A stretch of DNA of 64,000 nt from Amphiura filiformis (lineage: Eukaryota). Positions 3,001 through 63,384 of the stretch are shown here, one piece after another. The first letter of the stretch is position 1. Every line of letters starts with the position of its first letter. A program made the position numbers and the translations under genes. Below the pieces are notes generated by a model that made no database searches, had not been told where the DNA came from, and worked only from the letters and a program-made list of their open reading frames with translations. The stretch lies in NCBI RefSeq assembly GCF_039555335.1, contig NC_092646.1, positions 58,010,946 to 58,074,945 of the forward strand. The letters are read 5' to 3'.

Positions 3001-3339
3001 AAAGACCCTGTGATCACACTGAAGCAATGGACACACATCCCCTGCTACCTGTGCAATTATATTAGGTAAGTTTTATCTATATTGCAACTGTGAAGGTTTC
3101 TGGGAGTTGACAATTCCCAATATTGATAAAAACCAAACCAGTAACTGCACATGTAGGTTTGCTGTCAACAACTGATATATTGGCATAATATTTTAGACTA
3201 AAATAGTTCAAATTGTATAAAGTCTCTTATCATTGTAAGGCTACATGCAGTGTTCTACCCAGCCGGTCAGGGATATCCGGCATAGAGTCTTCCCGACTGG
3301 CATCAAGCTTAAATATATTGGTCACCAACCGGCGGGTCT

Positions 3340-3470
3340 CCCTGTCAGTCCGAAAATCTAATTGAAGTTATGGTTATGGTTAGGGTTAGGGTTGACGTCT
3401 TTTTCAATTAGATTTTCGGACTGACAGGGGTTCGGATTGACAGTGTTTCGTACTGACGAGGTGTACCCCG
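3340..3470. repeat. Hairpin element with (TTAGGG)2.5 in its loop
   Basis: ccctgtcagtccgaaaatctaattgaa ... ttcaattagattttcggactgacagggg; the loop reads gttatggttatggttagggttagggttgacg. Confidence 0.7.
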
Positions 3471-3849
3471 ACCGGCACAAAAAATCTTTGAAATCGCAGA
3501 AAATGCACAAGTTACAACCAAAATGTTGTGTTTTTTACCTGAGAGAACAGTAAGAGATGAATTAGTCCATGTGGGGAGATTACGAGATAAATTTGTCCGT
3601 GGTGTAGCTATGTGTAAGGAGGGAGAACACCTACACCACAGATAAATTCATCTCTTAATCTGCCTACATGGATAATTCATCTCTTATCTCCCTCCTTACA
3701 TACACTCAGCTACTAAAATGAGCCAGCGCTAAAATTGTGCTGGCTATAACTCTGGCTACATGCCAGAATGGCTTCCACATACTTATGCATGTTGGTTTGA
3801 GTGACAACCTTTTCCCCCCATTGGTATCTTAATGTATCTCATACCCAAG

Positions 3850-4071: not shown

Positions 4072-4239
4072 TGTGGTGATGGTTGAAGTTCCTAAATTGG
4101 GGAAAGAAAAATGGGAGCGACCTCATTAGTTTGAAGGGTCATTGGTATGAAAAGGGGTTTAGGGCATTTTAAGGTTAGGATTAAGTGGGGGTTAATGTTA
4201 GGGTTAAGGGTTAGGGTCAGTAGTAAGGTTAGGTTCCAA

Positions 4240-37060: not shown

Positions 37061-37237
37061 CAATCTCTTCTTTTCTCAGCAGCTCTTCTATGTCTACTGC
37101 TTTCATCTCCTTTTTGTCTTCGTCCTTCATAAATAACAATAAGAGTATGATAATAATGAAAACTATTATTATAGACAGTTTGTATTCTTTGGAGCATTTG
37201 CTTGATGATGAAAGCACTCATATGGCAACATGCAATG

Positions 37238-42705: not shown

Positions 42706-42882
42706 TCTCGTTTCCACGGCAACAAAACTAGTGAATTGTGTCACAATTGAGTACTCTTTACTCAACTCGATTATGTAGTTTTTCTGCTCCGTTTTCTTCA
42801 CTTCATGTTCTGTTCGGTTGACATCAAGCGTTCCATCCTCCCAGTCTCTTATGATGGCACGTGCTGTCAGCTGATGCAGCAT
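42700..42882 (-). CDS. VWA5A/ITIH-like C-terminal exon (MLHQLTARAIIRDWEDGTLDVNRTEHEVKKTEQKNYIIELSKEYSIVTQFTSFVAVETRDK)
   Basis: The LSKEYSIVTQFTSFVAVE motif is typical of the VWA5A/ITIH C-terminal region. The acceptor is ttgtag| and the donor AAG|gtatgg. The exon is 183 bp, phase 0. Confidence 0.55.
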
Positions 42883-43427
42883 CTACAATGGGTCAAAGGT
42901 CATATTCAAGTATGTTCACTGTCTACTAAACCAACCAAAATTTTCATCCAATGGAATACAAATTAGGGTACAATATTGGCTCAGACTGTCAACAAAAAAT
43001 ATGGATATTGGTCCCAGATAGGTCGACCGAAGATATGAGACAATTTTGTTTGTATTTTATGCAATATAATCACATTTTTATTTCCACAAGTTTAGCTTTC
43101 TTACAGGTTCTTGAGCTGAGACAAATAATGTATCAAATAATGTAAAAAAAAAGTTATGGAAATTTTTTCATTATGAAAAAATCATACATATGAGTCGGAA
43201 ATAACACCTTATATCAAACCTTAAGATCTCCTTTATAGAAACCATAACATTCCTCTTCAACTTTATTTGTCTCAATATTTAAGTGCAAGCTATTAATATC
43301 TTAAATATATAACTAACACCTTGCCCATCAGAAAAAAATCTTTAGTTTTGGGACCAATGTACAAATTCTGTATCAAAATGTAAACTAAATATGTTCCGCT
43401 AATATAGCTAGTTGACCTTTGACCTAC

Positions 43428-43508
43428 CTTGCCTTCAGTGATACTGAGGTCATGAGTAGATACCATAGTTGAGACTTCCTTCCCAGCAATCATTGCTTTC
43501 AGTGTTGC
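43428..43508 (-). CDS. Probable C-terminal exon of a VWA5A-like gene (ATLKAMIAGKEVSTMVSTHDLSITEGK)
   Basis: The acceptor is ttttacag| and the donor AAG|gtaggt. The exon is 81 bp, phase 0 to 0. Confidence 0.45.
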
Positions 43509-44149
43509 CTGTAAAATGTCAACAATTACAGTTATAATAATTACCGGTACGATTACACTCTGAATTTCAAGTACAGGACGTTTTTTGTTTGAAGTGGCTT
43601 GACCAGATTGACATCCCTCATCCCCCACCACTTTAACCCCTTCAAAATATAGATTTAAGGTCATATTGTTCTCATAACCCCAGTGAAATTCCAGGCCTGG
43701 AATATGTTTTCGTACAGGTGGTATGAAAAATAACATGGTAAAGCATTTTCCACCCTGATGTGGCAGTGATGTCAGTGCGCATTTCATTGGGCTCAGCTAC
43801 AAATCACGTACACATGCACACACTTAAAGATGCCGCATAGATGCGTGCACAAAACAGCTGCCTAAACGCTTTGCATCACTGCTACATCAGGGTGGAAAAT
43901 GCATTAACTAGGCGATTACATTAACACCTGAAGTTGTGTACTTTTGCTATGGGCCATTACAGTTTGTCCACTCTGAAATACAAAGTGACAACGCGCGCGT
44001 AAACAGTGCGTAGTGCTGCATCTCTGCTGCAGGTATGCGTGCCTTCCTTCAAAGTCGGCACAATGTGTGCGTCCGCGTCGATACTTTGTACTTCAGACTA
44101 GACAGACTGTAGGGTACACAAGTTTGCTTCTATAATCCAAATTGCTTGA

Positions 44150-46621
44150 GCAATTTAACTCCAAACTCAGAATAAGAATATTTGGGTGATTTGGCCTCAA
44201 TGTGAGGTAGAATACACAATGTGTTACACTTGGACCACAATCTGGTCATGCACCTTTAACTCCAAACTCAGAATACGAATGTTTGGGTGATTGGCCTCAA
44301 TGTGAGGTAGAATACACAATGTGTTACACTTGGACCACAATCTGGTCATGCACCTTTAACTCCAAACTCAGAATACGAATGTTTGGGTGATTGGCCTCAA
44401 TGTGAGGTAGAATACACAATGTGTTACACTTGGATCACAATCTGGTCATGCACCTTTAAGGGTGATTGGCCTCAATGTGAGGTAGAATACACAATGTGTT
44501 ACACTTGGACCACAATCTGGTCATGCACCTTTAACTCCAAACTCAGAATAAGAATGTTTGGGTGATTGGCCTCAATGTGAGGTAGAATACACAATGTGTT
44601 ACACTTGGATCACAATCTGGTCATGCACCTTTAAGGGTGATTGGCCTCAATGTGAGGTAGAATACACAATGTGTTACACTTGGACCACAATCTGGTCATG
44701 CACCTTTAACTCCAAATTCAGAATAAGAATATTTGGGTGATTGGCCTCAATGTGAGGTAGAATACACAATGTGTTACACTTGGACCACAATCTGGTCATG
44801 CACCTTTAACTCCAAACTCAGAATATGAATGTTTGGGTGATTGGCCTCAATGTGAGGTAGAATACACAATGTGTTACACTTGGACCACAATCTGGTCATG
44901 CACCTTTAACTCCAAACTCAGAATAAGAATGTTTGGGTGATTGGCCTCAATATGAGGTTGAATACACAATGTGTTACACTTGGACCACAATCTGGTCATG
45001 CACCTTTAACTCCAAACTCAGAATAAGAATGTTTGGGTGATTGGCCTCAATGTGAGGTAGAATACACAATGTGTTACACTTGGACCACAATCTGGTCATG
45101 CACCTTTAACTCCAAACTCAGAATAAGAATGTTTGGGTGATTGGCCTCTCTGTGAGGTAGAATACACAATGTGTTAACAACACTTGGACCACAATCTGGT
45201 CATGCACCTTTAACTCCAAACTCAGAATATGAATGTTTGGGTGATTGGCCTCAATGTGAGGTAGAATACACAATGTGTTACACTTGGACCACAATCTGGT
45301 CATGCACCTTTAACTCCAAACTCAGAATAAGAATGTTTGGGTGATTGGCCTCAATGTGAGGTAGAATACACAATGTGTTACACTTGGATCACAATCTGGT
45401 CATGCACCTTTAAGGGTGATTGGCCTCAATGTGAGGTAGAATACACAATGTGTTACACTTGGACCACAATCTGGTCATGCACCTTTAACTCCAAACTCAG
45501 AATAAGAATGTTTGGGTGATTGGCCTCAATGTGAGGTAGAATACACAATGTGTAACACTTGGATCACAATCTGGTCATGCACCTTTAAGGGTGATTGGCC
45601 TCAATGTGAGGTAGAATACACAATGTGTTACACTTGGACCACAATCTGGTCATGCACCTTTAACTCCAAACTCAGAATAAGAATGTTTGGGTGATTGGCC
45701 TCAATGTGAGGTAGAATACACAATGTGTTACACTTGGATCACAATCTGGTCATGCACCTTTAAGGGTGATTGGCCTCAATGTGAGGTAGAATACACAATG
45801 TGTTACACTTGGACCACAATCTGGTCATGCACCTTTAACTCCAAACTCAGAATATGAATGTTTGGGTGATTGGCCTCAATGTGAGGTAGAATACACAATG
45901 TGTTACACTTGGACCACAATCTGGTCATGCACCTTTAACTCCAAACTCAGAATATGAATGTTTGGGTGATTGGCCTCAATGTGAGGTAGAATACACAATG
46001 TGTTACACTTGGACCACAATCTGGTCATGCACCTTTAACTCCAAACTCAGAATACGAATGTTTGGGTGATTGGCCTCAATGTGAGGTAGAATACACAATG
46101 TGTTACACTTGGATCACAATCTGGTCATGCACCTTTAAGGGTGATTGGCCTCAATGTGAGGTAGAATACACAATGTGTTACACTTGGACCACAATCTGGT
46201 CATGCACCTTTAACTCCAAACTCAGAATAAGAATGTTTGGGTGATTGGCCTCAATGTGAGGTAGAATACACAATGTGTTACACTTGGACCACAATCTGGT
46301 CATGCACCTTTAACTCCAAACTCAGAATAAGAATGTTTGGGTGATTGGCCTCAATGTGAGGTAGAATACACAATGTGTTACACTTGGATCACAATCTGGT
46401 CATGCACCTTTAAGGGTGATTGGCCTCAATGTGAGGTAGAATACACAATGTGTTACACTTGGACCACAATCTGGTCATGCACCTTTAACTCCAAACTCAG
46501 AATAAGAATGTTTGGGTGATTGGCCTCAATGTGAGGTAGAATACACAATGTGTTACACTTGGATCACAATCTGGTCATGCACCTTTAAGGGTGATTGGCC
46601 TCAATGTGAGGTAGAATACAC
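44150..46621. repeat. Satellite A, block 1: about 28 copies of alternating 100-bp and 75-bp units
   Basis: The unit is gggtgattggcctcaatgtgaggtagaatacacaatgtgttacacttggaccacaatctggtcatgcaccttta[actccaaactcagaataagaatgttt]. Confidence 0.9.
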
Positions 46622-48423
46622 AGCGGTTTTCCACTTTTTAAGCCCAGTACTGGGCCAGTGTTGGGCAAGATCTAGCGGCACGGATTGAGCTATAAAAATG
46701 CCCCAATACTAGGCGGCAAAAGTGACACTTTTATTGGGCCAATTCTAGCGTACTCGCAATTGCCCAGTTCAAGCCACAAGTACTGGCCCAGTTCTAGTAG
46801 TACTACGGGCTGTCCCTAAAGTTGCCTGAAATTAAAATTATTTTCATGGGACGCCGTGTTTGGTTATCATGTTTATTGTATTTATTCTCGGAACCAGTAC
46901 TATTTACCCAAAAAGCTAACATTTAGCAGTATGAATAAGCAGTATTATAGACGTGTGAATTGGTTTGTGAGTTTGGCACAGCTTTAACTACTGAGTGAAG
47001 TTCAACACCGTGGTGTTTTATGTAACGGTAAGTAAATCATGACATTTTTTAATGAGTATGATACATGGATAAGCCGCAGTATGCATGTCATTGTATGCAT
47101 GTATCAATACTATCATTGTATCAATGTATGCATGGTATGCATAGTCACTGTAGTAGACTTGTAGTATAGCATGGCTAAGCCTAGAGCTTTTTGATTGTTT
47201 TATTTTTGTTTCAATTTCTCTAACCAGTTGTGTATGGCACCGTATAAATATCGTCATGATCATTAAGCTTAATCATTGTCAGGTAGGCCTAAAGTATTAT
47301 TCAGATTTCCTTTTACAAATTAAGCGTACTGCTAGCTGTCCAGCGCATCTTATTTTGCACATGGTCCAATGCACACGCTTGACGTCGCGCACGTATATGC
47401 GATGGTTAATTTGTAAAAGGAAATCTGAATATTACTTTAGTGTTCATACATACGTGTTATATTGGTCGATAGGCGGGCATAAACAACATTTATGCCCTGC
47501 TTTCTGGTCGTAAACAAGCCGCGTCAGAACCGATGAACGCCATGAGTAGGATATCTGCAGCGTATGCTTATGAAAGCTATTTACATAAAGCGCGAATGAT
47601 GTCTGCGATGTTCGTGGCGTCCAAACACGGTGGACTGAGCAAGTAAACGTTTTCTTACAATTAGCAATGGAAAAACTTTTAAAAAGGATTAGAAATTGAT
47701 AGTTTTTAGACTAAAATGACGATATTTTTTAGTTGTGGAGGAAAATAACAGCACTCAGAATGTTGTGTATGTATGAACGGGGTTCATTCATATATTTTCA
47801 GGACTAAACGTTGTTTATGCCCTCGGGCATAAACAATTGTTTAGTCATGAAAATATATGAATGAACCCCTAAATCATCAGTGACAGTGGCGTGCCATGCC
47901 CCCCACTTTTGTTGGTCATTCGGGGGAAAATGTTAAAAACGTCAAAATTTGCTGCTAATCAGACTCCATTCGGGGAACTTAACAACCTGCCCACCCCCCC
48001 CCCCCCCCCACCCCACTTTCAATGTGCTGGCCACGCCACTGGTCATCATAGGTAGATGGGAGAAATTTTGTCCCCGGAATTTTGTTTGCACAAACCATGA
48101 CTGGGCCGCTATTTAAAACGCTATACTGGCAAAAAGTGCCAAAGAACTACATGTACGGTAGTGTAGGCCTACCATTCTACTATCTTTCTTCAACTCATTT
48201 GACTCGTAACAATTTGATAGAGAGAGACTGGGGAGTGCGCGCATTTGTGAGCACAGTGCATTTTTTTATGTCGAGCATATCTACATGTAGGCATTAAACC
48301 ATGTTAACAGCTGAAATCTGGGCGATAATGCTGACGAAACTTCGACCAGGCACAATTAGTGACCTGGTGAACGAAGGGGCCGCCGTGGATAGCTGGTCGG
48401 GGATTTTTTGCAGGACAGTCAAG

Positions 48424-48890
48424 TGTAGCCAACAATCAGGCTTATTACCCTGATTGGAACCGACTGTAACATCAAGGTCTTTTGTCATTGGTCATCTGCC
48501 CTGCCATTACCAGATGAGCCACGGGAAGAGCAGAATTATTTTTTTTTGTCCTGCGAGGAATTGAACCGGGACCTCTTGCACAAAGTGTGCTTTGCGATAT
48601 TATGCGTGACTGACACATGCTTTTATGAATTTATACAAGTGTAAATTGTGACTTGTAGCCAACAATCGGGCTTATTACCCTGATTGGAACCGACTGTAAC
48701 AAGGTCTTTGTCATGGGTCATCTGCCCTGCCATTACCAGATGAGCCACGGAAGAAGCGGAATTAATTTTTTTTGTCCTGCGGGAATTGAACCCGAGACAT
48801 CTTGCACAAAGTGTGCTTTGCGTGACATGCGTGACTGACACATGCTTTTATGAATTTATGCGAGTGTAAATTGGGACTTTTGGGCAACAA
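48424..48890 (-). repeat. Two tandem copies (about 232 bp each) of a tRNA-derived SINE-like unit
   Basis: There is a near-identical duplication. The minus strand shows GGGTTCAATTCC and GGTTCAATTCC T-arm-like boxes. Confidence 0.55.
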
Positions 48891-49755
48891 AAACAATATT
48901 AAATTTCCTAAAATTGTAAAATGTTGCTAATTAAAACAGTGTTTAATTAAATCGAATATGAATGAGAATAAACAATATGATATAAACCCAAGGTAGGGGG
49001 TCACTGTCATCAAAAGCATGGACTCTGATTGGGACTCCCTTTAGTCTATATAAAATTGATGTTTTGGTTCTTGCCCTCTCCCTCCTGGCCTCATCAGTGT
49101 CTGGGGTTTGTCAGATTTTTTTTTCTTTTCTCAAAACATTAATTTTATACGACCTTACAAGCCTTGGGCCATTTGATTCGAGCACTTCAGGCTACAAAAA
49201 GTTGGGGGTCAACAACAATAACTGGGCAAAAAATATTTCCGTCAGTACATTCACAGGTTTGGGGTGCCAATTTGTATCCTTTCCCCTGCGCACCACAAAC
49301 CCGGATTAGCACACAGGCACTTATAAACAATGAGTGAAGCTTATCACAGGTAGGCAGGCTCACATCACACACTATAGGTGGTGCTATTCGTCCATAGGGA
49401 AGTGGAATGTGCCTGTACGGTCCAAAAATGGCTTTACTGTGGGGCTCAATGGAAAAAATCAATATATTTTGACAACCAAAACCTAAATGACTTTGACTTA
49501 CTTTGGTACTGGCATAATACTGGATTCATAACATAGTGCAATATATATGATCCACCAAGTCGACACTCGTTAAAGCGCAAATGCAATTTGTGTGTAAATC
49601 AAGACCAACCAAAACAGCTTTCTTGCAGTAAAGAATAGGAGGTCATCTGGGGTCACATACAGTAGTGTACATTGTACATGTGCCTACTGTCACAATTTCA
49701 CACACAAAACTTTGGGCAATTTGGTGACGCTATTTTTGTCTGTAACTTCAAAACA

Positions 49756-50048
49756 GGGCTGTCAACTCTCACGCATTGGCCGTGAGTCTCACGCATTGGG
49801 TCACTTTCTCATGGTCTCACGCCAAGGTAGTATAATCTCATGCCTGAAAGTAAATCTCACGCAAAAAGCTGAAAATTGAGTAAAATCTCACGCATCGCCA
49901 TGAAAAAATTGTTGTTGCTACCCCCAGCTTTTCACATTTTCGAGCGCCGTGGCTTAGATAATCATGGGTCAAAATGAACATTGAAGTCGGCAAATCCCGG
50001 TACGCCTGTCTCACGCCAAGCAATTCCAAAAAGTTGACAGCCCTGCTT
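49756..50048. mobile_element. Small MITE (TIR CAGGGCTGTCAAC) with six internal tctcacgca motifs
   Basis: cagggctgtcaactct at 49756 pairs with ttgacagccctg at 50037. Confidence 0.6.
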
Positions 50049-50261
50049 CAAAAGTATATGCACTAGAAACATCATTGACCCCTTATTGTTTAGGTAATTT
50101 GATTCTCTTTCAAATGAAAGAACTTTCAGCTAAAAAATATTAAACTTCAAAATTTTATGAACATCCCTATCACAGGCATGAGACTGCACTTTCCTAAAAA
50201 AACTAAAATGCAAGTACCCAAAAGCCATTGCACTATAATCATGTCAAAAAGTAAATTTTAA

Positions 50262-52170
50262 CCTAGGGAGTGTTCAGAAATACACTGGTGGGGGGCTGGA
50301 AAATATACACTATGACCAGCTCTTAATAGGCGGGAATTATTTGGTTTTTGTTACTGCGCTAGTCAATCAAGTTCCAACTTACGCACGCGTATATTCACAA
50401 AAGCACGCGTCTTAACGCAAAGCGCAGTTCGCGTAACTGCTGCGCCCAGCTGTGTGTCACAAACCAGTTCACACGTCTATAATACTGCTTATCTATATCA
50501 AATTATCAATGTTATGAGTCCCCGCCTATTAAGAGCTGATCAGAGTATAGGGGGTCATAAAATTTTAGGAGTTCTGAATAGGGGGGTAAAAAGTTTTGGG
50601 TGTATATGAACAGGTGGGGTTAAACAATTTTCGGTACGTAGGAGGGGGTAAAAAACTTTTGTACCAGTATTGAACCACAACAAAAGTGCATTTGATCCAG
50701 TGTTAAAAATTGCCTGGCCTCCAGACTTGTACCCGAGTCCAGCTCATCCGAGTCCGGATTGGAGTCCAAGTCCAGTGGTGACAAGTCCGAGCCAAGTCCG
50801 AGTCCAACAAAAATAAGCCCCAAGTCCAGCTCAAGTCCGGACTCGGTCAGAGTTCATGCCATTTTTTTGGGGGGAGGGGGGTCATTACTGACAAAATTTT
50901 GAAAGAAGGGGTTCATTTGGTATAACATTTTGAAAAAAAATGGATCACCGGGTGGAACATAATTTCAAAAAATGGAGCAAAATTTAATATTTTGTTTCTA
51001 ATTTAAAAATTTGACAGTTTCTGCTTTTAAATTATATGGAATTTTGAAGATAAAATTGTACAAAAAGAAGGTCATTGGTCAAAGATCACTACACCCCACC
51101 ACATATTGCTCTCCTATACAAACCCACCCTACCAAACCCCACCCCACCCCATCAACCAACCATACATATTTCACTTCAAAGACACATACATGTACAGGTA
51201 ACTCCTGAAGGTACTACATGTATCAGACCACCTGTATCAGAAAGCAGTCAGGTGGGGGTATTTGCGTGTGTGCCGGGGTACGGGTGTGACACACAGCTAC
51301 ACACTGCATGTATTGTCAACTCACAGTGCCATGCCCTATAGGTTGTGTGCAGCATACATGTAAATGAAGGGCAATGTATTCAAATATTATAGAAAAATAT
51401 CATCATCATCATCATCATCATAACTGAAAGTTACCTTTTCAGAAATATTTGGCTGTGTGATATTAATTAATATTTATAAATTATAAACATCTCAAAATTG
51501 GACAAATGTCCCAGACAAATGTGCAGTGAATAGTGAGCACACAGACACCCTAGCCCTCAGGGATGAGTACCAATTTACTGGGTGGGAGCTGAGATGTATA
51601 TGGCCCAGTCTCTCTAAAAACAAAACCGGTATGTATTTGCAACTGCAATTTCTTTTTTCGTCTGTGCCACTGTGCTACGCCCCTGAATTTTGGGCTAAAA
51701 TGGTCTAAGATTTTTGCGTGTCACCGCGCAACAAAATTCCCAGTAAAACCAGAACAAAATATACTCGTCCCCGACCCCCCTAAATTATAATGTTTCCGTC
51801 GCCACTGATTCCAATCATAAATGTATAGTTTATTAATACTCAGGGGGTTCAGTGGGTTGCATAAACATACTTATGCTACTTTAATTTGGAACATTTCCTC
51901 AATTCCACATATTCTATACCAATGAAATGAGTACTATTTCATTGCACATGAATACAAATTTTAGCATCATTAATATGTTTCCTCTGCCATTTGATGTAGA
52001 ATGGTACATTATGATGGGGGGGGGTTAAAATAGTTTTGAACCTATATGAAGGGGGGTCAAAAAAGTTGTGGGTTCGCGAAGAGGGGGGGGGTTAAAAAAA
52101 ATTTCGACATGAAAAATAATTTTTTCCAGCCCCCACCAAAGTATTTCTGAACACTCCCCTATAAAGGATC
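50262..52170. mobile_element. Putative 1.9-kb TIR element
   Basis: gggagtgttcagaaatac...ctggaaaa at 50265 is inverted relative to ttttttccagcccccaccaaagtatttctgaacactcccc at 52125-52165. There are subterminal ggggg(t)aaaaagttttg repeats. Confidence 0.4.
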
Positions 52171-55100
52171 CACAGGCTGTAAGATTCCACTGCCCCTATT
52201 AAATACATGATAAAAGGCTACCAAAAACTTTCATAATTTTGTAAAAAACTTAACAATTTTATGTTAAAAAGTATTTAGAGAGAACTTAGAATGTGTGAAA
52301 ATTTGAAGACCCAATTTTGAAAAAACCTTATTTCCCAGGGAAAGATCTGAGAGCAGGCCACACCATGACCAGATGATTAAACTAAGCCATGCAGTATGTA
52401 TTTCTCAAACACTATCCATAGTTTGTTCTTATTAAGCCCATTGCACGGTTCTGCCATTCATGCAAGGAGAGCCTCGATCTGGCAGCATGCATGAATGGGA
52501 ATTGAACCAGTCATATAACATTGCGTAAAGTTACGTAATACTTCCTTTCATGTCTATTGCCAGTTCAAAGTTCTCCTCGCATATGGCGGAATGGTGCAAT
52601 AGGCGAATTGAACATGTTGAATGGGTTCTATGGATGAAGGAGGCATGGACTCCAACATGTTTCTTTGCATCTGGGCCAGTGATTTATAACAAAACTGTAT
52701 CTTCAGGCAATACTGAATTTTGTGCTTGTTATTTTGTTGCAATTTTTGCCTAAGTCACTTGTGTGGGTGTGCATGCATATTTTCCTCATCATGTTCATTT
52801 GCTATTTTTAAATGATTAATTTCAGTATGCTTAAATTTATACATGTACATCTCTTGTCTTTTATTTTCTGGGGTATTAACTATAATAAGGGTCTGGTTTT
52901 TGTTTTATTATTCAGGTGCAGATCACTTCAGATCACAGAAGACTTGTACATGTATCAATCGAGGACATGTTTTCTGCATATTGATCATCATTAAATACAT
53001 GTAAATTGATGTAATGCTGCAATACATAAAGGCACCCTGGTGGAAGGTGTCAGAAGTCACAACTGACAGAAATTTATGCAATGAAATTGCTATTTTGACC
53101 AGACTAATAACAGAACAAAATTAATGTAAGTGTGAATCGCTGAATTACTGTAAGTCACAATGTATGGTTTTAAATGAATTTCTTTATCAAACCTGATTTG
53201 TTTTGCATATATTTGTTTACACATGTCCCATCTTAATGAAATCCAGCCAAGTTCATCAATTGTGCCTGAAGGACAACAGAGCAATTTAAAGATATTAAAT
53301 CTCCTACAAAACACCACAGTTAAGCAGTAAGTGCATGGGTAAGATATAGTAAACTTGTGGATTTGCTGACCAAATTCATTTGCCCGGTACCGTAATTAAG
53401 TTGTTCTGGGACACCCTGTACATCTACATGTATGTATTTTCTCAAATGCATTGCTAGAATTGGTATGGTACCCTTCTTTGGTAGCAAATTATCCACCCTC
53501 TTTTCTGTCATGGACTAGTAAAGGTGGGTGACTAGATTGCCAGCCTCATCCCGGAGCCTCATCCCCCCACTTAATTGGTATCCCATCAGTATGCAGATTT
53601 TGTTATCAGGTGAAATCTCATAATTTCTCATAACCCCAGTGAAATTTTAGGACTGAAATAGATAGTTGAGGCAGTATGAACAAAAACATGGTAGTTGAGT
53701 GGTTATAACCCCAGTAACAGGGCGCAAATTTGCCTGCCCTTTTTAGATCGGCCGAAGGAAAAGACCTTATGGCATCATGAGCACAGCATTTTTATACAGT
53801 TAGTTTGGAATTGGGTGGAGTTAAAAATGGGTCCAGAGCATAAAATCTCAAAACAGCGCCCTCTCCCGAGGGACGGATAACCTTGTGGACAGTTCGCTAT
53901 GGTCACGAAATTTACAGGGTAGAATTATGTTGATCCACCCTTACCGTGTGCTATTAGGCAACTTCCTATTGAAACTCCTTCAAGATGTACTGTTCTATGA
54001 AAAACTGGAATACAGATAATTCTAGAATCCAAATCACTGGAGCAAATTTGGAATAAGAATGTTTGGGTGACGTGCCTCAATATGAGGTAGAAAACAAAAA
54101 GTGTTACACTTGGACCACAATCTGGTCACACACCCTCAAGATTTTTAATGATGTTGATTTCAAAATATCATTGAACAACAAGGTTTAAAATAGTCGGGGT
54201 TGTTGTCTACTGAAGATAACACTATGCTTGAAATATCATTAGTGAGTAGTGTAATGTAACAAATAAGATGGACTGTAAAAATAATACATAGGATTGAAAG
54301 TGCAGCCTGGGAAGTGCAAGGATTTTAAGAACATTTTACACTATAACTTGACAGGCTTCAGCTGTGGATAACAATAATTTCACAGGCTTCTGCTGTGGAT
54401 AATAATAATGAAATTGTCCAACAACTCTGTTTATAACTTTTGTATCAATATTGTTATTTTGTTGTTTCAGAAAGGACCGTCAGAAAGTACCATGACTTGA
54501 TCAACAGCGTTGACAGTGCCATGGTGGCAGTGAAAGTAGTCGATTGGGATCACTGAAAATCAATATCATGGAGACCTCACATCTTCCACTGTAATGCTTG
54601 TTAAAATGCTCGGACTCTACATATCCTTAGCCTTCACTATGATAGGAATGCATGCCTTTCAGACCAATTGCAGCTACATGTACCAACCAGGCTGGAATGC
54701 CTTGGACACTTGAACACAAAGTGGAAATATACTAGTACCTTTATTTCCAAGCAAGTAAATGTGAAGCTGGAAAATGTGGAAAATAGACTTTTAAACTCAA
54801 AAATTTCAGAAAACTGTTGGTGTTCTACATACACAATCAGTATCATGACTTCCAATTGGTGGAGAATCAGGAAAGCAATCACTTTATTGCACAAATATTC
54901 TCACAGGATAGATTAGCAGAATATAATAAGGTGGTTGAAAATCCTCAGTAATGCTATGAAACATTTTTAATTCTGGATTGTGAGGGTAACAGATTATCTG
55001 ATTAAGAAATAAAGGGTAAATCCGTCACTCGGCGGAAAAGCCTCATATGCACTTTTGGCCATTGAACATATGAATAAAGCCTTGTAGGTGTAGACTTTAT

Positions 55101-56299
55101 ATTGAAGAGTTTGCTTCATCCATGTTCAAGGGCCAAAGTACATGCAGGAAAAAAGTCATATTTACTTTTGGCCCTTGAACATGGATAAAGCCTTGTAGGT
55201 GTAGACTTTATATTGAAGGGTTTGCTTCATCCATATTCAGGGGCCAAATGTACATATGACAAAATATTTATACTACCCTAAAATCAGAAAGGTTCTACAT
55301 GAAATAAACTTGAGACTGAAAAGAAGACTGAAAAGAAGCATGATCATTTATTATGCACCAAACATGAAGGTACATGTTTTATACATTTATGTCACTCTAG
55401 GATTTATGACACCTAATGATGATATTAATGGTTCAATCCTAAATACTGAAGGTCAAATCTATTAAAAAGCAGATTTAAGATAAGATGTGAAAATTGCAAT
55501 TTTGTTCAAACCTAATACAAGGTTGATTTTTAAATTTCAATTATATTTGAAATAACTGCACTTCATTGAGCGAGTCTCAGTCTCCATTATTTTTTTAGGT
55601 CAAGTAAAATAACATGTATATTGTCCCTTCCCTCATCCATTTTTGGCAATTTGTTCAAGCTAGTGGTAGTAATACCGTCAAAAATATCAGGGCCTCCACA
55701 TTTTTATGTGTTGACAAAGCCTTTGCAATTGAAATTTTACACAGAAATGAATAGTAAATTTGTAACAAATAATAACTGCTTCCAGACAATATACATGTTA
55801 TTTATTTTACTTGGCCTTAATATGTAATCTTCCAGGACTTATCAGGCAAATATAATAACCCTGGAATTACGGGCTATTGGGCTATGTGATTGCAAATTGT
55901 TTTTATTAATGCCTTTTTTAATAAAAATTTGGGCCAAAAAAAAACCTGTTTATATTTTTTTTGGGGGGATTTTCTCCAAAAAATAGTATTTTTGCCTAAA
56001 TTTGACCTCACAGATGAATCCATCAAGTTATGAGGATGAGGCCCAAAAATGTTCATAATTCCTGGGTTAAAACCACCCATTAACTCTTTCAATGACATTG
56101 TAAAAAACAAAAAGGGGGTTCAAGGCTTATTTGGGGATTTTTGTACGGGGATGTACCACACTTTCAGATGCTGATTCTACCTACTTCTTGCTGTTTTTAC
56201 CACCCCGTCAGTATACTAATTGCCTTGGGCGCTTTTAGGGGCACTTGTGGTGGGGTCTCCCCTGTCAGTCCGAAACACCGTCAATCCGAACCCCTGTCA

Positions 56300-58320
56300 G
56301 TTCGAAAGTCATTTCAGAAAGAAACAAATTTTGCATAATTTCAGAAAAGGAACTTTTTACAAAGACGTCATTTCAGAAAAAGGCGACTTTTTTAAAAGGA
56401 TGTCATTTCAGTAAAAGTGATTTTTTTAAAAGATGTCATTTGAGAAAAGGCAACTTTTAGTCAGAAAAAAAAATATATTTAAAGACATTTAAAAAATTGG
56501 TGACTTTTTATTTAAAAAGAAGTCATTTCAGAAAAAAGCGACTCTTTTTAAAGACGTCATTCCAGAAAAAAAGGTGCTTTTAAAAGACATTATTTTAGAA
56601 AAGGTGACTTAAAAAGAAGACATCATTTCAGAAAAAGGCGACTTTTTCAAAAAGAGACGTCATTTCAGAAAAAAGGTTGACTTTTTAAAAAGATGTCATT
56701 TGAGAAAAAAGGCTACATTTTATAAAAAGATGTCATTTCATAAAAGGCGATTTTTTTTTTTAAATACGCCATTTTAGAAAAGGCAACTTTTTCGGAAAGA
56801 TGTCATTTTTAAAAAGACGTCATTTCAGAAAAAGGTGACCTTTTTAAAAAGACGTGATTTCAGAAAAAGCGACCTTTTTTAAAAAGACATTTCAGAAAAA
56901 GGTGGCTTTTAAAAAGATGTCATTTGAGAAAAAGGCTACTTTTTATTTTAAAAGATGTCATTTCAGAAAAAGGCGACTTTAAAAGACATTTCAGAAAAAG
57001 GCAGCTGTTTTAAAAAGAGATTTCGTAAAAAAGCGACTTTTTAAAAAGACATTTCAGAAAAAAATGTGACTTTTTATAAAGACGCCATTTCAGAAAAATG
57101 TGACTTTAAAAACGTCATTTTAGGGAAAAGGCTCACTTTTTTAAAAACGTCATTTCAGAAAAAAAGGCGACTTTTTTAAAAAGATGTCATTTCAGAAAAA
57201 GCAACCTTTTTAAAGACATTTCAGAAAAAAGGGGACTTTTTAAAAAGATGTCATTTGAAAAAAAGGCTACTTTTTATTTTAAAAGATGTCATTTGAAAAA
57301 AAGGCTACTTTTTATTTTAAAAGATGTCATTTCAGAAAAAGGCGACTTTTTTAAAGATATTTTAGAAAATGGCGGCTATTTTAAAAAGACATTTCAGACC
57401 TTTTGTAAAAAGACATTTCAGAAAAAGGTAACTTTTAAAAGACATTTCAGAAAAAGGCGGCTGTTTTAAAAAAAGACATTTAGAAAAAACGCGACTTTTT
57501 AAAGACGTCATTTAAGGAAAAAAACAGGAAAAAACAACTTTTAAAGACGTCATTTCAGAAAACGGTGACTTTTAAAAGACATTTCAGAAAAAGGCAGCTG
57601 TTTTAAAAAGACATTTCATAAAAAACTACTTTTAAAAAAAACATTTCGGAAAAAAAATGTGACTTTTTATAAAGACGCCATTTCAGAAAAAAAGGTGACT
57701 TTTTTAAAAAGATGTCATTTCAGAAAAAGCGACCTTTTTAAAGACATTTCAGAAAAAAGGTGACTTTTTTAAAAAGATGTCATTTGAAAAAAAGGCTACT
57801 TTGTATTTTAAAAGATGTCATTTGAAAAAAAGGCTACTTTATATTTTATAGATGTCATATCAGAAAAAAGCAACTTTTTTAAAAAGATGTCATTTCAGAA
57901 AAAATTTGACTTTTTTTAAAGACGTCATGTCAGGAAAAAAAAGCAGACATTTCAGAAAGGCGACTTTTTATAAAGACGCCATTTCAGAAAAATGTCACTT
58001 TTTAAAGACGTCATTTTAGGGAAAAGGCGACTTTTTAAAAAAGATGTCATTTCAGAAAAGAAGAAACTTTTTAAAAAAGACGTCATTTCAGAAAAAGGCG
58101 ACTTTTTTTAAAAAGTCGTCATTTCAGAAAAAAGGCAACTTCAGTAAAAAGACGTCATTTCAGAAAAAAAAGTGATTTTTTCAAAGATATTCTTTAAAAA
58201 TGCGACTTTTTAAAGACGTTATTTCAGGGCAAAGGCAATTTTTTTAAAGACATCATTTCAGAAAAAGGAGACTTTTTTAAAGATGTCATTTCAGAAAACA
58301 AAAAGCAAGACTTCCTTTTT
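56300..58320. repeat. Satellite C: about 35-bp minisatellite (aaagacgtcatttcagaaaaaggcgacttttttaa) x about 55
   Basis: The periodicity is clear. Most units carry GACGTCA, which is 7 of 8 positions of the CRE palindrome TGACGTCA. Confidence 0.85.
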
Positions 58321-59526
58321 GGCAGAACCCCAAAAGTCCGAAGCCATGTCAGTCCGAAACCCCGCTAAACACAGGGGCTAAACAAAAACGACTTAGATGA
58401 AAAAAAGATGGCATTTTAGGAAAAAAGCTTAGGCCTTTTTTTTTTTTTATAAAGACGTATTTTTAGGAAAATGCTACTTTTCATAAAAAAGCAACCTTTT
58501 AAATTAAAAAACGACTTTTAGTAAAAATTATTTTTTGTCGGAACCCCATCAGTCTAAAACCCCACATCGTTTTTGTAAAAAAAAAATTATAAAGACTTTA
58601 GTTTTAGAAAAAGGCTTAACATTGACAAAAAAGAGATAGTGAAATTTCCGATTCACACCTTTAAAATATGGCCTAGCCTAAAATGGATTTTTTATTTACA
58701 AATAGGCCTATGGCCTAGCTCAAAAATTGCCTTGCACTTGCTTTTTCACTGAGAAAGAACACTGATCGAAACCGTTAAACTAATAGGCCTAGGCCTAAGC
58801 TGATCCAAATAAATTGCATTTCGGCTACACACAAGGCATGTACTGTAGGCCTACCGTATCATTTTTTTGAAGGCCGTTACCATTTACAACTCTCATTGTA
58901 CTGATTCCTTATTTAGGCCTACTCGAACGTTCAAAAAATAGGGTGTTACATAATTTATACACTATATATATACAGTACAAGTTGGAATAGACATATAGTC
59001 TTGTAGACGTAGGCCTGGTATTCGTGCATTTGCTATGCCTATGCGTATGCATGAGGCTTGGCAAAGCCAGGCTTGTTTTTAATATAAATTGCTTAAAAGT
59101 TGCAATTTATATTATACGAAGGCTCAGCATCGGGGCCTATAATTCATATCCACAACGAGGAAGTTCTAATATTATTTAAAAGCCTAAAAACTGGCTTCCA
59201 AATCCAGACGCGTGAACATGGTGAAACGGGTGAAAAAACTCAAAACATAATTGATTGGGAACTGTTTCGCTAGTACGAGCGCGTCACCCACAAGTACTTG
59301 GCCAGATCTGGTGAAATAATTACTGGGCCAGTCAAAGTCGGCTGGCACTAGGCACAGATCCGGCGCAATTGCGAGCCCAATACGTGGCGCTAGTAGTTGC
59401 CCAGTACTAGCCGACTTTGTCTTGCCCAGTGCTAGCGCTGACTTTTTCTAGCCCAGTACTGGTGCTAGTACTGGGCGAGTGATAAAGCGGCTTATTACTG
59501 GCCCAGTACTGGTAGAAGTTAGCTGT

Positions 59527-60960
59527 GTACACAATGTGTTACACTTGGACCACAATCTGGTCATGCACCTTTAACTCCAAACTCAGAATACGAATGTTTG
59601 GGTGATTGGCCTCAATGTGAGGTAGAATACACAATGTGTTACACTTGGATCACAATCTGGTCATGCACCTTTAAGGGTGATTGGCCTCAATGTGAGGTAG
59701 AATACACAATGTGTTACACTTGGACCACAATCTGGTCATGCACCTTTAACTCCAAACTCAGAATAAGAATGTTTGGGTGATTGGCCTCAATGTGAGGTAG
59801 AATACACAATGTGTTACACTTGGACCACAATCTGGTCATGCACCTTTAACTCCAAACTCAGAATAAGAATGTTTGGGTGATTGGCCTCAATGTGAGGTAG
59901 AATACACAATGTGTTACACTTGGATCACAATCTGGTCATGCACCTTTAAGGGTGATTGGCCTCAATGTGAGGTAGAATACACAATGTGTTACACTTGGAC
60001 CACAATCTGGTCATGCACCTTTAACTCCAAACTCAGAATAAGAATGTTTGGGTGATTGGCCTCAATGTGAGGTAGAATACACAATGTGTTACACTTGGAC
60101 CACAATCTGGTCATGCACCTTTAACTCCAAACTCAGAATAAGAATGTTTGGGTGATTGGCCTCAATGTGAGGTAGAATACACAATGTGTTACACTTGGAT
60201 CACAATCTGGTCATGCACCTTTAAGGGTGATTGGCCTCAATGTGAGGTAGAATACACAATGTGTTACACTTGGACCACAATCTGGTCATGCACCTTTAAC
60301 TCCAAACTCAGAATATGAATGTTTGGGTGATTGGCCTCAATGTGAGGTAGAATACACAATGTGTTACACTTGGACCACAATCTGGCCATGCACCTTTAAC
60401 TCCAAACTCAGAATATGAATGTTTGGGTGATTGGCCTCAATGTGAGGTAGAATACACAATGTGTTACACTTGGACCACAATCTGGTCATGCACCTTTAAC
60501 TCCAAACTCAGAATAAGAATGTTTGGGTGATTGGCCTCAATGTGAGGTAGAATACACAATGTGTTACACTTGGATCACAATCTGGTCATGCACCTTTAAG
60601 GGTGATTGGCCTCAATGTGAGGTAGAATACACAATGTGTTACACTTGGACCACAATCTGGTCATGCACCTTTAACTCCAAACTCAGAATATGAATGTTTG
60701 GGTGATTGGCCTCAATGTGAGGTAGAATACACAATGTGTTACACTTGGATCACAATCTGGTCATGCACCTTTAACTCCAAACTCAGAATATGAATGTTTG
60801 GGTGATTGGCCTCAATGTGAGGTAGAATACACAATGTGTTACACTTGGACCACAATCTGGTCATGCACCTTTAACTCCAAACTCAGAATATGAATGTTTG
60901 GGTGATTGGCCTCAATGTGAGGTAGAATAGAATAGAATAGAATAGAATAGAATAGAATAG
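59527..60960. repeat. Satellite A, block 2, ending in (GAATA)7
   Basis: Same unit; the microsatellite lies at 60925-60960. Confidence 0.9.
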
Positions 60961-61215
60961 ATTTATTAGTGGAGGCGCACTCCAAACACAATCTTACATG
61001 GCAGTGTAACCAAGCTCAACATGACCGAAAAAATGTATGAACCATATCACTTCGCAGCAAAACTGCAGCCACAAAAAGGCGCAAACTGACAAGGTTACAC
61101 AACCTTGAAGTGATATAGAAAATACATTAGTACAATTGAGCAGAATTACACTGAATTGCATAAAATTGGTGACAAAAACACAAACAAGCAAAACAAAAAG
61201 GATAAAAACTGAAAG

Positions 61216-61557
61216 TTATGAACCACCACAAGGGTGGCAATTGTCTCGATGACAAGGCCAATGTTCAGATTGATGACGAGTTGAACAGTACTTTACAGTT
61301 TTACATCTAGCACAAAAACGGAGACCAAACTTGTTTGACGAATCTGCCGAGCAAGTAGGCAGAGCACAAAAATGCAATGAGTCATTGGCGTCCGGAATTC
61401 CAGGAGTAACCATAGAAACGCATGGCAAAGATGGTGTCAAAAGTTCAGAATTGGTTGCATATGTTGAAATTGATGATGAATTACTTGAAATTGGAGTTGA
61501 AATCTCACAATGTGTTACACAATGTGTAACACAAATGTGTAACAATGTGTAATACAC
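61216..61557 (-). CDS. ORF ending in a MYND-type zinc finger (CALPTC...FCARCKTVKYCSTRHQSEHWPCHRDNC)
   Basis: The spacing C-x4-C...C-x2-C...YCS-x2-HQ-x3-W-x2-H-x3-C fits the MYND consensus; it is the HQ variant seen in the EGLN-type MYND. The ORF lies between satellite blocks and its N-terminus derives from satellite-like sequence. Confidence 0.4.
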   Translation of the reverse strand: MYYTLLHICVTHCVTHCEISTPISSNSSSISTYATNSELLTPSLPCVSMVTPGIPDANDSLHFCALPTCSADSSNKFGLRFCARCKTVKYCSTRHQSEHWPCHRDNCHPCGGS

Positions 61558-62405
61558 AATGTGTTACACTTGGACCACAATCTGGTCATGCACCTTTAAC
61601 TCCAAACTCAGAATATGAATGTTTGGGTGATTGGCCTCAATGTGAGGTAGAATACACAATGTGTTACACTTGGACCACAATCTGGTCATGCACCTTTAAC
61701 TCCAAACTCAGAATATGAATGTTTGGGTGATTGGCCTCAATGTGAGGTAGAATACACAATGTGTTACACTTGGACCACAATCTGGTCATGCACCTTTAAC
61801 TCCAAACTCAGAATACGAATGTTTGGGTGATTGGCCTCAATGTGAGGTAGAATACACAATGTGTTACACTTGGACCACAATCTGGTCATGCACCTTTAAC
61901 TCCAAACTCAGAATATGAATGTTTGGGTGATTGGCCTCAATGTGAGGTAGAATACACAATGTGTTACACTTGGACCACAATCTGGTCATGCACCTTTAAC
62001 TCCAAACTCAGAATAGGAATGTTTGGGTGATTGGCCTCAATGTGAGGTAGAATACACAATGTGTTACACTTGGACCACAATCTGGTCATGCACCTTTAAC
62101 TCCAAACTCAGAATACGAATGTTTGGGTGATTGGCCTCAATGTGAGGTAGAATACACAATGTGTTACACTTGGACCACAATCTGGTCATACACCTTTAAG
62201 TTAGTGTTTTCTATATCCATGGTGATTGGCCTCAATGTGAGGTAGAATACACAATGTGTTACACTTGGACCACAATCTGCACCTTTAAGTTAATGTTTTC
62301 TATATCCATGGTGATTGGCCTCAAGGTGAGGTAGAATACACAATGTGTTACACTTGGACCACAATCTGGTCATACACCTTTAAGTTAGTGTTTTCTATAT
62401 CCATA
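61551..62405. repeat. Satellite A, block 3 (uniform 100-bp units with degenerate terminal units); it abuts the donor of the vWA exon at 62461
   Basis: Same unit. Confidence 0.9.
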
Positions 62406-62460
62406 GTAATTCCAGACAATAATAAATAACAAAGCTACTTCCATTTTTACCTTAGTACAA

Positions 62461-62721
62461 AATGGCACATATCCATAGACAACTTGTCGAGATCCACTAA
62501 ACAATGAAGTGATCTGACTGGGTGCTTGAATTGGTCTTGGTGCGTGGTTATCAAACTGTTGCCATTCCACACTGACTGATGTCAACACCGGATGAGAAGA
62601 TTTGTTCAGTTGAGACTTGATCTTTCCTTCCCATTTGGATTTCACTTTGCTGTCAAAGAACTGGAATGCTCCAGCACCGACTCGTGCAAGCGCCCTCAGT
62701 AGATGACGATTGGCTGTGGAA
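62461..62721 (-). CDS. Next exon of the VWA5A-like gene (SSTANRHLLRALARVGAGAFQFFDSKVKSKWEGKIKSQLNKSSHPVLTSVSVEWQQFDNHAPRPIQAPSQITSLFSGSRQVVYGYVPFCTK)
   Basis: Its phase is compatible with the exon at 63126. The acceptor is atttatctcag| and the donor AAG|gtaaaa. It encodes the end of the vWA domain plus following conserved region. Confidence 0.65.
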
Positions 62722-63125
62722 CTGAGATAAATGCCATAAAACACAATTACCAAAAAAAGACCGAAACCTTATTTCTTTCTCTCTTACAGTTACAGTTGAT
62801 CGCTGAACAATAGGCCCTCAATTCACTCAACAAGGGAGGCGGCTTACGTCACAACTTGGCAGAAGATCCCTCAGAGGTTTGGCTCATCTTGACCTGTGGC
62901 ACAACATCCGCATCACAAGTCAACAAACTTTTGCCATGCTAACATCAGTGGGCCTGATGATGCATCCGAGATAAGATGTGAAATATTGCCACTCATCAAA
63001 ACATAAGTCCAGTAGATCAAATTATAATATCTCAATGCAAGTTCATACTTTCGTATAATACATATAGTTCAAAAAATGTGTATTTCACGATAAGTTTTCA
63101 GTTTTAATTATCAAGACATTCTCAC

Positions 63126-63384
63126 CTGACACCAAATGTAAACAAGCGAGTATACATAGCGTTGTCATGTACGGCATTCAATGTAGCTTCTTCATTGTTG
63201 ATGTGCCCGTCAGATATCAAGAACACATTCCGCAGTGTCTCCGCTTTGAGTAAAAAGTAAGCATGTAATGGATGCCAGGCTTCTGTGCTACCCATGGAAG
63301 CCTCTAAGCTGTTGACGAATGTCTGGGCTTTCTTTGTGTTGATGTCATTCTTGGGTTGGCTGCTTGCGAAAAGTTCATCAAATG
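63126..63384 (-). CDS. vWA-domain exon of a VWA5A/ITIH/PARP4-family gene (FDELFASSQPKNDINTKKAQTFVNSLEASMGSTEAWHPLHAYFLLKAETLRNVFLISDGHINNEEATLNAVHDNAMYTRLFTFGV)
   Basis: LEASMGSTE...PL and VFLISDG...RLFTFG match the vWA motifs of the ITIH/VWA5A family (ADMGGTEI..PL and FLLTDG...FsFGIG). The acceptor is cactcccag| and the donor CAG|gtgaga. Confidence 0.7.

Follow-up and report, generated by a model that had tools for sequence, protein, structure and literature searches.

A 35-bp intronic minisatellite with CRE-like motifs as a possible expanded repeat of a short foldback-like element

The likeliest reading of the tandem array of 35-bp units described here is that of an ordinary repeat, derived from a mobile-element family and expanded, and not that of a bank of CRE sites. 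In particular, we put the probability at roughly 0.55 that the array grew from the internal repeat of a short, non-autonomous DNA element of foldback/MITE-like type, whose mobility and transposon superfamily we infer. A second, compact locus 53 kb away is homologous to the left end of the array and folds into a hairpin.

Results

The initial annotation described a 35-bp minisatellite, and the array is indeed real. Namely, at 56308-58298 on the plus strand of the window (the whole stretch of DNA that was analysed, 64 kb long), about 55-60 AT-rich units of 33-38 bp each follow one another with the consensus AAAGACGTCATTTCAGAAAAAGGCGACTTTTTTAA. TRF on 56338-58298 returns periods of 33-38 bp with 70-79% matches, and an HMM of the unit gives 55-65 plus-strand matches, every one of them within 56300-58700, with no credible match in the rest of the window. 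The unit itself is an ancient dimer of about 18 bp, and what is conserved in it is CATTTCAGAAAAA, not the CRE-like core. Within the array, some 210 bp occur twice as a block (57140-57350 and 57665-57880), at about 94% identity, as compared with about 72% mutual identity between distant units, which is a signature of unequal exchange. With head-to-tail units in the range of 10-100 bp over at least 0.5 kb, and with such signatures of exchange (TRF, unit HMM, block duplication), the array is a minisatellite. The folding of its single strands is more stable than that of shuffled sequences (z -3.4). The array, its surroundings and the second locus comprise the following features.

43509..62450, minus strand: 18.9-kb intron of a VIT/VWA-domain gene, holding the array (tblastx colinearity with L001 and L002; splice sites read)
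56252..56307, plus strand: left end block, GGGGTCTCC followed by three 16-bp subrepeats, R1 at 56259, R2 at 56275 and R3 at 56291 (16-mer scan, homology, flank HMM E 2e-21)
56308..56361, plus strand: transition zone, GTCATTTCAGAAA right after R3, then one or two poor units and the first full unit (unit HMM 56308-56320, E 0.026)
56338..58298, plus strand: 35-bp minisatellite of about 55-60 units (TRF, unit segmentation, HMM column table, internal block duplication)
58321..58359, plus strand: two more 16-bp subrepeats (ACCCCAAAAGTCCGAA, GCCATGTCAGTCCGAA), oriented as in the left block (16-mer scan, flank HMM E 0.009)
58360..58530, plus strand: short decayed run of array-like units at 58405-58428 and 58453-58500 (unit HMM E 0.01-3.7)
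58535..58562, plus strand: decayed 16-bp subrepeats (GTCGGAA CCCCATCAGTCTAAAA CCCCAC), included only for position and phase, as the 16-mer scan match at 58543 (5 mismatches) is by itself at chance level
3334..3468, minus strand: hairpin copy of the same family, 135 bp (stem, folding, homology, flank HMM E 9.5e-24, 16-mer scan)
3340..3429, no strand assigned: perfect 27-bp stem in which 3340-3366 pairs with 3403-3429, loop of 36 nt (blastn self-match 27/27; DNA fold -50.7 kcal/mol, z -5.9)
3325..3333, plus strand: candidate target-site duplication, left, CCAACCGGC (direct repeat, 8/9 with 3468-3476)
3468..3476, plus strand: candidate target-site duplication, right, CCGACCGGC (8/9 with 3325-3333)

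Alignment of the flanks had been set beforehand as the test on which their claimed similarity would stand or fall, and the homology that it returned is far beyond chance: 56264-56322 matches the reverse complement of 3398-3457 over 60 bp at 87% identity (E 4e-13), and 56264-56307 matches 3457-3414 over 44 bp at 93% (E 7e-13). What is more, three variants of the 16-bp subrepeat, R1 of the CCCCTGTCAGTCCGAA type, R2 ACACYGTCAATCCGAA and R3 CCCCTGTCAGTYCGAA, stand in the same order at both loci, and the hairpin copy holds, just inside its stem, AAAGACGTCA, which is the first 10 nt of the array unit. The two copies are in opposite orientation and lie in unrelated surroundings, with no flanking homology.

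It had also been claimed that the motif flanks the array on both sides, and this is true of the left side only in full measure. On the right, the similarity is short (23 bp against 3436-3414, 91%, E 0.02) and is direct, not inverted, relative to the left flank. Exact copies of the flank motif CTGTCAGTCCGAAA lie at 56262, 3342 and 3414 (minus strand), and copies with one mismatch at 56294 and 58346; at up to three mismatches the motif has 12 matches in the window against 4.5 expected, a number reached by none of 100 shuffles. In the 16-mer scan, shuffles give 13-24 matches at up to five mismatches, and single matches with 3-5 mismatches are therefore at chance level. No inverted right arm, terminus or target duplication of the array copy was found in the window up to 64000. 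A Helitron 3' end at 58353 (CCCCGCTAAACACAGGGGCTAA) was considered and ruled out, as its stem has only 4 bp.

The hairpin with a telomere-motif loop, reported earlier, is confirmed. Its telomere-like loop (3367-3402) reads GTTATGGTTATGGTTAGGGTTAGGGTTGACGTCTTT and contains TTATGG twice, TTAGGG twice and TGACGTC. In minus-strand order, the copy consists of the end block with its three 16-bp subrepeats (3414-3462), AATCTAATTGAA, AAAGACGTCA, (CCCTAA)2(CCATAA)2 and an inverted end (3334-3366) that has one subrepeat as against three in the other arm. The candidate target duplication adjoins the termini GGGTCTCCCT and, as reverse complement, GGGTACACCT, which agree in 7 of 10 positions; this 8/9 repeat has one mismatch and, owing to a CCGG palindrome, may equally belong to the inverted repeat, which it would then lengthen. 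Inverted repeats built of tandem subrepeats are present in miniature at the hairpin copy (27/27, one versus three copies) and are absent from the array copy in the window.

Is the 35-bp unit itself related to the 16-bp subrepeat? R3, a chosen variant, aligns to the array unit with a local score of 14, matched by 34 of 2000 shuffles (p ~0.02), and the two consensus sequences score no better against each other than shuffles do. Descent of the unit from the subrepeat may thus be suggested, if weakly, by the letters of R3.

In total, the window yielded two clear copies and a partial one. Protein searches with a VIT/VWA exon and an HSP70 exon returned matches at 60-80% identity, the best of them at 71-80%. 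Scans for exact patterns of the end block and of the unit consensus gave no matches in JGI metagenomes, GTDB genomes and IMG/VR, all of them collections without the source genome, and neither exact patterns nor the flank HMM detected family copies in 40 kb of two related eukaryotic contigs. Self-BLAST of 53000-59600 for a paralogous empty site returned only other satellites. As for a transposase nearby, there was no informative ORF in 46.7-59.5 kb, and the Pfam scan matched only HSP70, zf-MYND and weak repeats. Rfam gave only hairpin-type miRNA models far below their gathering scores and no hammerhead; a hammerhead of Penelope-like elements was rejected on this ground, and also because CTGTCAG does not fit the CUGANGA core. 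Searches of the literature for the motif strings returned chance primer matches only.

The claim that about 50 near-CRE GACGTCA motifs occupy most units of the array did not survive counting. The full CRE TGACGTCA is absent from the array, exact GACGTCA occurs 10 times, each time within AGACGTCA (7 of the 8 CRE positions), and most units have GATGTCA or a 3-nt deletion in its place; the variants are GATGTCA (18), GACATTTC with three nucleotides missing (11), GACGCCA (3) and GACATCA (2). The number of CRE-like sites rises to 43 only if two mismatches in eight are allowed, and there are 13 CGTCA half-sites in 2 kb. In the HMM column table, no column of the unit is less conserved than the C of the motif CpG (49% C, 46% T), the columns beside it being 94-100% conserved, and the next two least conserved columns form the second CpG of the unit. 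Neither full palindromes nor half-sites kept by selection, the marks of a CRE array, are thus seen. That said, the observed/expected CpG ratio is 1.14 in the array versus 0.50 in the window, so that the CpGs of the array have not yet been erased.

The intron that holds the array has its donor, AAG|GTAAAA, at 62450 and its acceptor, TTTTACAG|G, at 43509, and the type of the host gene follows from Pfam VIT and VWA_3 matches on upstream exons of its homologues. Around the array, the intron is full of unrelated satellites (TRF), and other satellites occur throughout the window. The same intron measures 18.9 kb here versus 0.4-0.9 kb in the two relatives (L001, L002), and its content is therefore lineage-specific insertion and expansion.

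Discussion

How could such an arrangement have arisen? In the scheme that we favour, the end of the family would be GGGGTCTCC, followed by 16-bp direct subrepeats (CCCCTGTCAGTCCGAA). Subrepeats of this kind are typical subterminal repeats of the transposase-binding type. The locus at 3334-3468 would be a compact copy, one that folds back, retains only one piece of the 35-bp unit and possibly carries an 8-9-bp target duplication. In the copy from 56252 on, replication slippage and unequal exchange would have multiplied the AT-rich, self-complementary 35-bp repeat to about 57 units, the inverted end of this copy having been either lost or never present. GACGTCA would then simply come from the ancestral unit and be wearing away through CpG transitions and small deletions. 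The earlier proposal of a single family of elements whose internal array varies is supported for the left flank and the hairpin by the 60-bp alignment, the subrepeat order and AAAGACGTCA; the right flank is a poorer, partial copy in the same orientation.

Foldback-type DNA transposons with tandem subrepeats in their inverted ends include Drosophila FB, Tetris of D. virilis, Galileo and sea urchin TU. The present family resembles them in that its ends consist of short direct subrepeats, its arms are unequal (one versus three subrepeats in the hairpin copy), it has no coding capacity and its internal repeat occurs also as a kb-size array. In Tetris, the tandem repeats of the terminal inverted repeats have a stretch in common with the flanking domain and likewise form kb-size arrays, and the target duplications are 8-10 bp long (PMC4079207), as compared with the candidate 8-9 bp at the hairpin copy here. 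However, the present family is far smaller (135 bp for the hairpin copy), its array unit is 35 bp and not about 220 bp, its array copy is one-armed and its hairpin loop carries telomere-like hexamers.

On the side of the element we counted the homologous ends, the subrepeat order, the presence of AAAGACGTCA in the hairpin copy, and the inverted termini with the 8/9 repeat, and further the opposite orientation of the copies, the block duplication, the folding of the array, the growth of the intron and the Tetris analogue. On the other side we counted the small number of copies, the lack of a transposase nearby and of an inverted terminus or target duplication in the array copy, and further the ambiguity of the 8/9 repeat, the weak link between the 16-bp and 35-bp repeats, and the lack of copies in the searched collections.

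If the foldback/MITE-like reading is correct, the CRE array that catches the eye is a repeat in decay, derived from a small family of elements, and its value is mostly one of bookkeeping. It would add one example of the route from transposon to satellite described for Tetris and the pearl/DTC84 group. Should the family prove abundant, annotation of such arrays could use its 60-bp end block as a convenient marker, and the 19-kb intron would be a clear case of intron growth through repeat expansion.

The most serious competing possibility, though a clearly less probable one, is a compound tandem repeat that never transposed. Namely, the 16-bp and 35-bp repeats would form one locally evolving satellite, and ectopic repair, reinsertion of circular DNA or segmental duplication would have carried a fragment to 3.3 kb, where fold-back repair then turned it into a palindrome. 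Indeed, 16-bp blocks and 35-bp-like units alternate three times in one orientation (56252-58562), the array copy is without inverted end or target duplication, and the window is rich in other satellites. The perfect 27/27 stem, set against 7-13% divergence between the loci, would fit a recent formation of the palindrome, although zero mismatches have a probability of about 15% even at such divergence. In length of unit, kb scale, 70-80% identity of units, younger internal block duplications and intronic site, the array resembles ordinary AT-rich minisatellites and VNTRs, from which it differs in having a recognisable conserved end block common to a second, compact locus. It is this second locus that speaks against a purely local satellite: the ends of the hairpin copy are defined and adjoined by a candidate repeat of 8-9 bp, the copy is inverted and 53 kb off with no flanking homology, and it keeps only the end block and one unit fragment, as a compact member of a family would.

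A Helentron-derived tandem-repeat MITE of the pearl, DTC84 or DINE-1 type, with the order left flank, core repeats, tetranucleotide microsatellite and right flank, appears improbable. Conserved flanks around a variable number of internal tandem repeats are common to the present family and to pearl, DTC84, DINE-1 and Cg_HINE, matching the layout in PMC3879986, and GTCAGTC, within the subrepeat, is similar to the microsatellite motif of ACTG type in that group. Moreover, tandem-repeat MITEs and Helentron-associated elements can seed satellite-like arrays (PMC3879986; see also PMC7492417). However, in elements of the DTC84 group the left module is unrelated to the right one, a tetranucleotide microsatellite lies beside the core repeats, the cores number up to five in DTC84 itself (about six in related insect elements) and the target duplication is AA (PMC3879986). 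Here, by contrast, the flanks on both sides are 16-bp direct subrepeats, the microsatellite segment is absent, the 35-bp unit is present about 57 times, the candidate duplication measures 8-9 bp and is not AA, no ends are bounded by AA, and no convincing subterminal palindrome was found.

Would our conclusions change if the array had acquired a function? It is conceivable, but decidedly unlikely, that it is kept unmethylated in some tissues and serves as a methylation-sensitive ATF/CREB-type platform in the VIT/VWA intron; its 13 intact CGTCA half-CREs and its CpG ratio of 1.14 versus 0.50 are what would allow for such an unmethylated state. If so, a foldback-like family would spread ready-made CRE-bearing repeats. 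Still less credible, judging from the motifs, is the earlier idea that the array at large acts as a sink for CREB/ATF-type bZIP factors or as an intronic enhancer. The half-sites, the 10 copies of AGACGTCA within 2 kb and the CpG ratio might be taken to favour it, but no full TGACGTCA is present, three nucleotides of the core are deleted in 11 units, the C of the motif CpG is the worst-kept column beside nearly invariant neighbours, and the intron is filled with satellites. Methylation of the central CpG blocks CREB binding, and the TpG decay of the array CpGs points to germline methylation. In addition, the orthologous intron of the two relatives lacks such an array. With known CRE arrays (natural CRE enhancers, the HTLV-1 21-bp repeats and multimerised CRE reporters) the present one has in common a repeated CGTCA-containing core; it differs from them in that it contains no full palindrome, has A as first base throughout and varies most at the central CpG, and in copy number and decay it is like a satellite and not like a regulatory module.

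Finally, a chance resemblance of the flanks, with the array an isolated minisatellite, can practically be discarded: the motif is short and its single matches with 3-5 mismatches are at chance level, but the 60-bp and 44-bp alignments refute this explanation, and the conserved order of the subrepeat variants and the 10-mer of the array unit found at both loci argue in the same direction.

The array and the end block it shares with a distant hairpin

The array is real. Tandem Repeats Finder (TRF) returns it as a head-to-tail series with periods of 33-38 bp and 70-79% matches, and anchoring on the conserved ATTTCAGAAA yields 58 landmarks, spaced mainly 29-38 bp apart. An HMM of the unit gives 55-65 plus-strand matches, every one inside 56300-58700, and no credible match in the rest of the 64-kb window. 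The unit consensus, AAAGACGTCATTTCAGAAAAAGGCGACTTTTTTAA, is an old dimer of approximately 18-bp halves (AAAAAGACGTCATTTCAG and AAAAAGGCGACTTTTTTA), which is why TRF reports periods of 17-19 as well. The A+T content is 73%, as opposed to 61% in the whole window. The array and its related features are as follows.

3334-3468 (-), hairpin copy, a compact sequence approximately 53 kb from the array
56252-56307, left flank of the array: GGGGTCTCC, then three 16-bp subrepeats at 56259, 56275 and 56291
56338-58298, array of 35-bp units
58321-58359, two more 16-bp subrepeats, oriented as in the left flank (23 bp, 91%, E 0.02; HMM E 0.009)
58405-58500, a few decayed array-like units, to the right of these subrepeats
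near 58543, a further decayed subrepeat pair, after the decayed units

The initial annotation had related both flanks to the stem of a hairpin with a TTAGGG-bearing loop. The hairpin itself is borne out, with a perfect 27-bp stem (3340-3366 / 3403-3429), a 36-nt loop carrying TTATGG twice and TTAGGG twice, and a folding energy of -50.7 kcal/mol (z -5.9). So is the kinship of the left flank, which aligns, in reverse complement, with the hairpin region's right half over 44 bp at 93% (E 7e-13), lengthening to 60 bp at 87% (E 4e-13; 56264-56322 versus 3457-3398), while on the right the relationship comes down to the short 23-bp match. What is more, the subrepeat variants, with the distinctive ACACYGTCAATCCGAA in the middle, are arranged identically at the two loci, which means that the end block was passed on as a whole. 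On the minus strand, the hairpin stem runs straight into AAAGACGTCA, the opening ten bases of the array unit, so that the two loci have in common not only the end block but also part of the repeat. The left hairpin arm holds one subrepeat and the right arm three, a difference that a 32-bp deletion between subrepeats would yield. On the right side of the array, subrepeats give way to decayed units and then to subrepeats again, and thus the 35-bp repeat lies within, and alternates with, 16-bp blocks.

The termini of the hairpin copy, GGGTCTCCCT and reverse-complemented GGGTACACCT, match at 7 of 10 positions, and the copy is bordered by CCAACCGGC and CCGACCGGC, a direct repeat matching at 8 of 9. 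About one such repeat is expected by chance over all tested boundaries, and at the boundaries fixed by homology the estimated chance is approximately 0.02; as a candidate target duplication it is suggestive, not proven. Given its CCGG core, the same bases can also be read as an inverted repeat. For the array copy, neither an inverted terminus nor a flanking direct repeat was found up to position 64000.

Origin and growth of the array

The best-supported reading is that the two loci belong to a small non-autonomous family of foldback or MITE-like elements, whose end would consist of GGGGTCTCC and the 16-bp subterminal repeats, and that the internal AT-rich repeat of one copy would have expanded into the 2-kb minisatellite. 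With two copies, the main rival is less likely but still plausible: a compound satellite that evolved only locally, one fragment of which was displaced. No further copy turned up in JGI metagenomes, GTDB genomes, IMG/VR or 40 kb of two related eukaryotic contigs, collections that do not include the source genome, and Rfam gave no family match and no hammerhead, only hairpin-type miRNA models below threshold. Among described elements the nearest is Tetris, from Drosophila virilis: the tandem repeats in its inverted ends have a stretch in common with the flanking domain and are found as kilobase-size arrays too, and its target duplications are 8-10 bp (PMC4079207). The pearl/DTC84 group, with its few core repeats, tetranucleotide microsatellite and AA duplication (PMC3879986), is built differently, and its layout is not seen here.

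As for growth, distant units are approximately 72% alike, a block of approximately 210 bp at 57140-57350 recurs at 57665-57880 with approximately 94% identity, and two neighbouring 38-bp units (57253-57328) are identical. Such block duplication with identical neighbours is what remains when blocks of several units slip or are exchanged unequally. The array units are self-complementary (AAAGACGTC-TTT, AAAAAG..CTTTTT), and as single strands they fold better than shuffled sequence (z -3.4), without one defined structure; folding of this kind would make slippage easier. Immediately behind the third subrepeat, GTCATTTCAGAAA (56308) resembles a bridge between GTCAGTTCGAAA and the array unit. The similarity of subrepeat and unit is statistically weak, the score of the chosen variant being reached by 34 of 2000 shuffles, and a comparison at the consensus level gave none.

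The CRE-like core

The estimate of about 50 near-CRE GACGTCA motifs was too high: the array has 10, each preceded by A, and no full TGACGTCA. The variant cores are GATGTCA (18), GACATTTC (3 nt missing; 11), GACGCCA (3) and GACATCA (2), and 17 of the 43 sites within two mismatches of the 8-mer are AGATGTCA. Across the aligned units, conservation is lowest at the C of the first CpG (C 49%, T 46%) and at both bases of the second (C 62%, T 33%; G 64%, A 18%). Elsewhere it is mostly 89-100%, three more columns drop to 71-78%, and the best-kept part is CATTTCAGAAAAA. We therefore read the core as eroding, through CpG transitions and small deletions. That said, the observed/expected CpG ratio of the array is still 1.14, as against 0.50 in the window, so that this decay is incomplete. 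Two things speak against a putative role as a CRE-type sink or enhancer, as suggested initially: the motif counts, and the fact that conservation is lowest at the CpG.

The host intron

The DNA of the window is eukaryotic, and its best protein matches in the large collection have 71-80% identity. tblastx against the two relatives, whose contigs were retrieved via the homologue of exon 62385-62753, reveals the colinear exons of a minus-strand gene.

63128-63235 (-), exon
62448-62720 (-), exon
43407-43517 (-), exon
42700-42879 (-), exon

The relatives' upstream exons encode VIT and VWA_3 domains. Together with a canonical donor (AAG|GTAAAA at 62450) and acceptor (TTTTACAG|G at 43509), this colinearity places the array within a VIT/VWA gene, in an intron of 18.9 kb (43509-62450, minus strand) that measures only 0.4-0.9 kb in the two relatives. 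Also in the intron is an unrelated satellite of 75/100/175 bp, which forms two large blocks (44154-46622 and 59528-62383), and no transposase-like ORF was found near the array. The best-supported view is of a minisatellite of an ordinary kind, associated with a transposon, inside an intron swollen by repeats.

A solo monomer of the 75/100/175-bp satellite lies at 54043-54140 in the same intron. The stretch at 59322-59496, directly ahead of the 100-bp satellite (59528), combines inverted repeats of 33 nt that are 85% complementary with a tandem repeat of 27 bp, and may be the end structure of the element carrying this satellite. The intron also holds a MYND zinc finger ORF (61216-61557, minus strand; Pfam E 5e-8), whose 5' part enters satellite beginning at 61506, and which could represent a gene nested in the intron, a pseudogene or part of a transposon.

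Other features of the window

The palindrome TAGGCCTA, the 8-mer most over-represented outside the satellites, occurs 15 times versus 0.4-0.5 expected: at 1767, 17422, 29329, 31713, 32481, 38548, 39661, 40780, 47284 and 48164, and in a cluster of five just right of the array (58703, 58784, 58790, 58846 and 58914). Its T..A frame holds 15 of the 20 AGGCCT hexamers, in mostly unrelated contexts, and it was found neither in 40 kb of the two relatives nor in the literature searched. Possibly, it is the excision footprint of a TA-targeting element or a putative lineage-specific binding motif; beside the former possibility, TACATGTA stands at 15 versus 1.6. The apparent enrichment of TAAGCTTA is due to a local tandem duplication of approximately 885 bp at 11900-13088.

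Near the hairpin copy, a second, unrelated inverted repeat lies approximately 100 bp away (3560-3680; only sub-threshold miRNA-type Rfam matches), and a degenerate interstitial telomere-like tract of TTAGGG and TTAAGG variants (4169-4217), approximately 700 bp from the TTAGGG-loop hairpin, is immediately upstream of a tRNA-like, SINE-looking sequence (4249-4320). HSP70-family exons split by an intron occupy 7487-8825 on the minus strand (Pfam HSP70 E 8e-31 for 7487-7831), with a top database identity of only approximately 80%. Finally, 34316-37064 consists of 36 copies of a 75-bp tandem repeat, with a higher-order period of 303 bp. Either strand has open reading frames, of at most 493 aa; the minus strand encodes the 25-aa repeat MGWEPTKSPPGQPQTLEVSIDTHTY, and a coding exon of repetitive sequence is one possibility.
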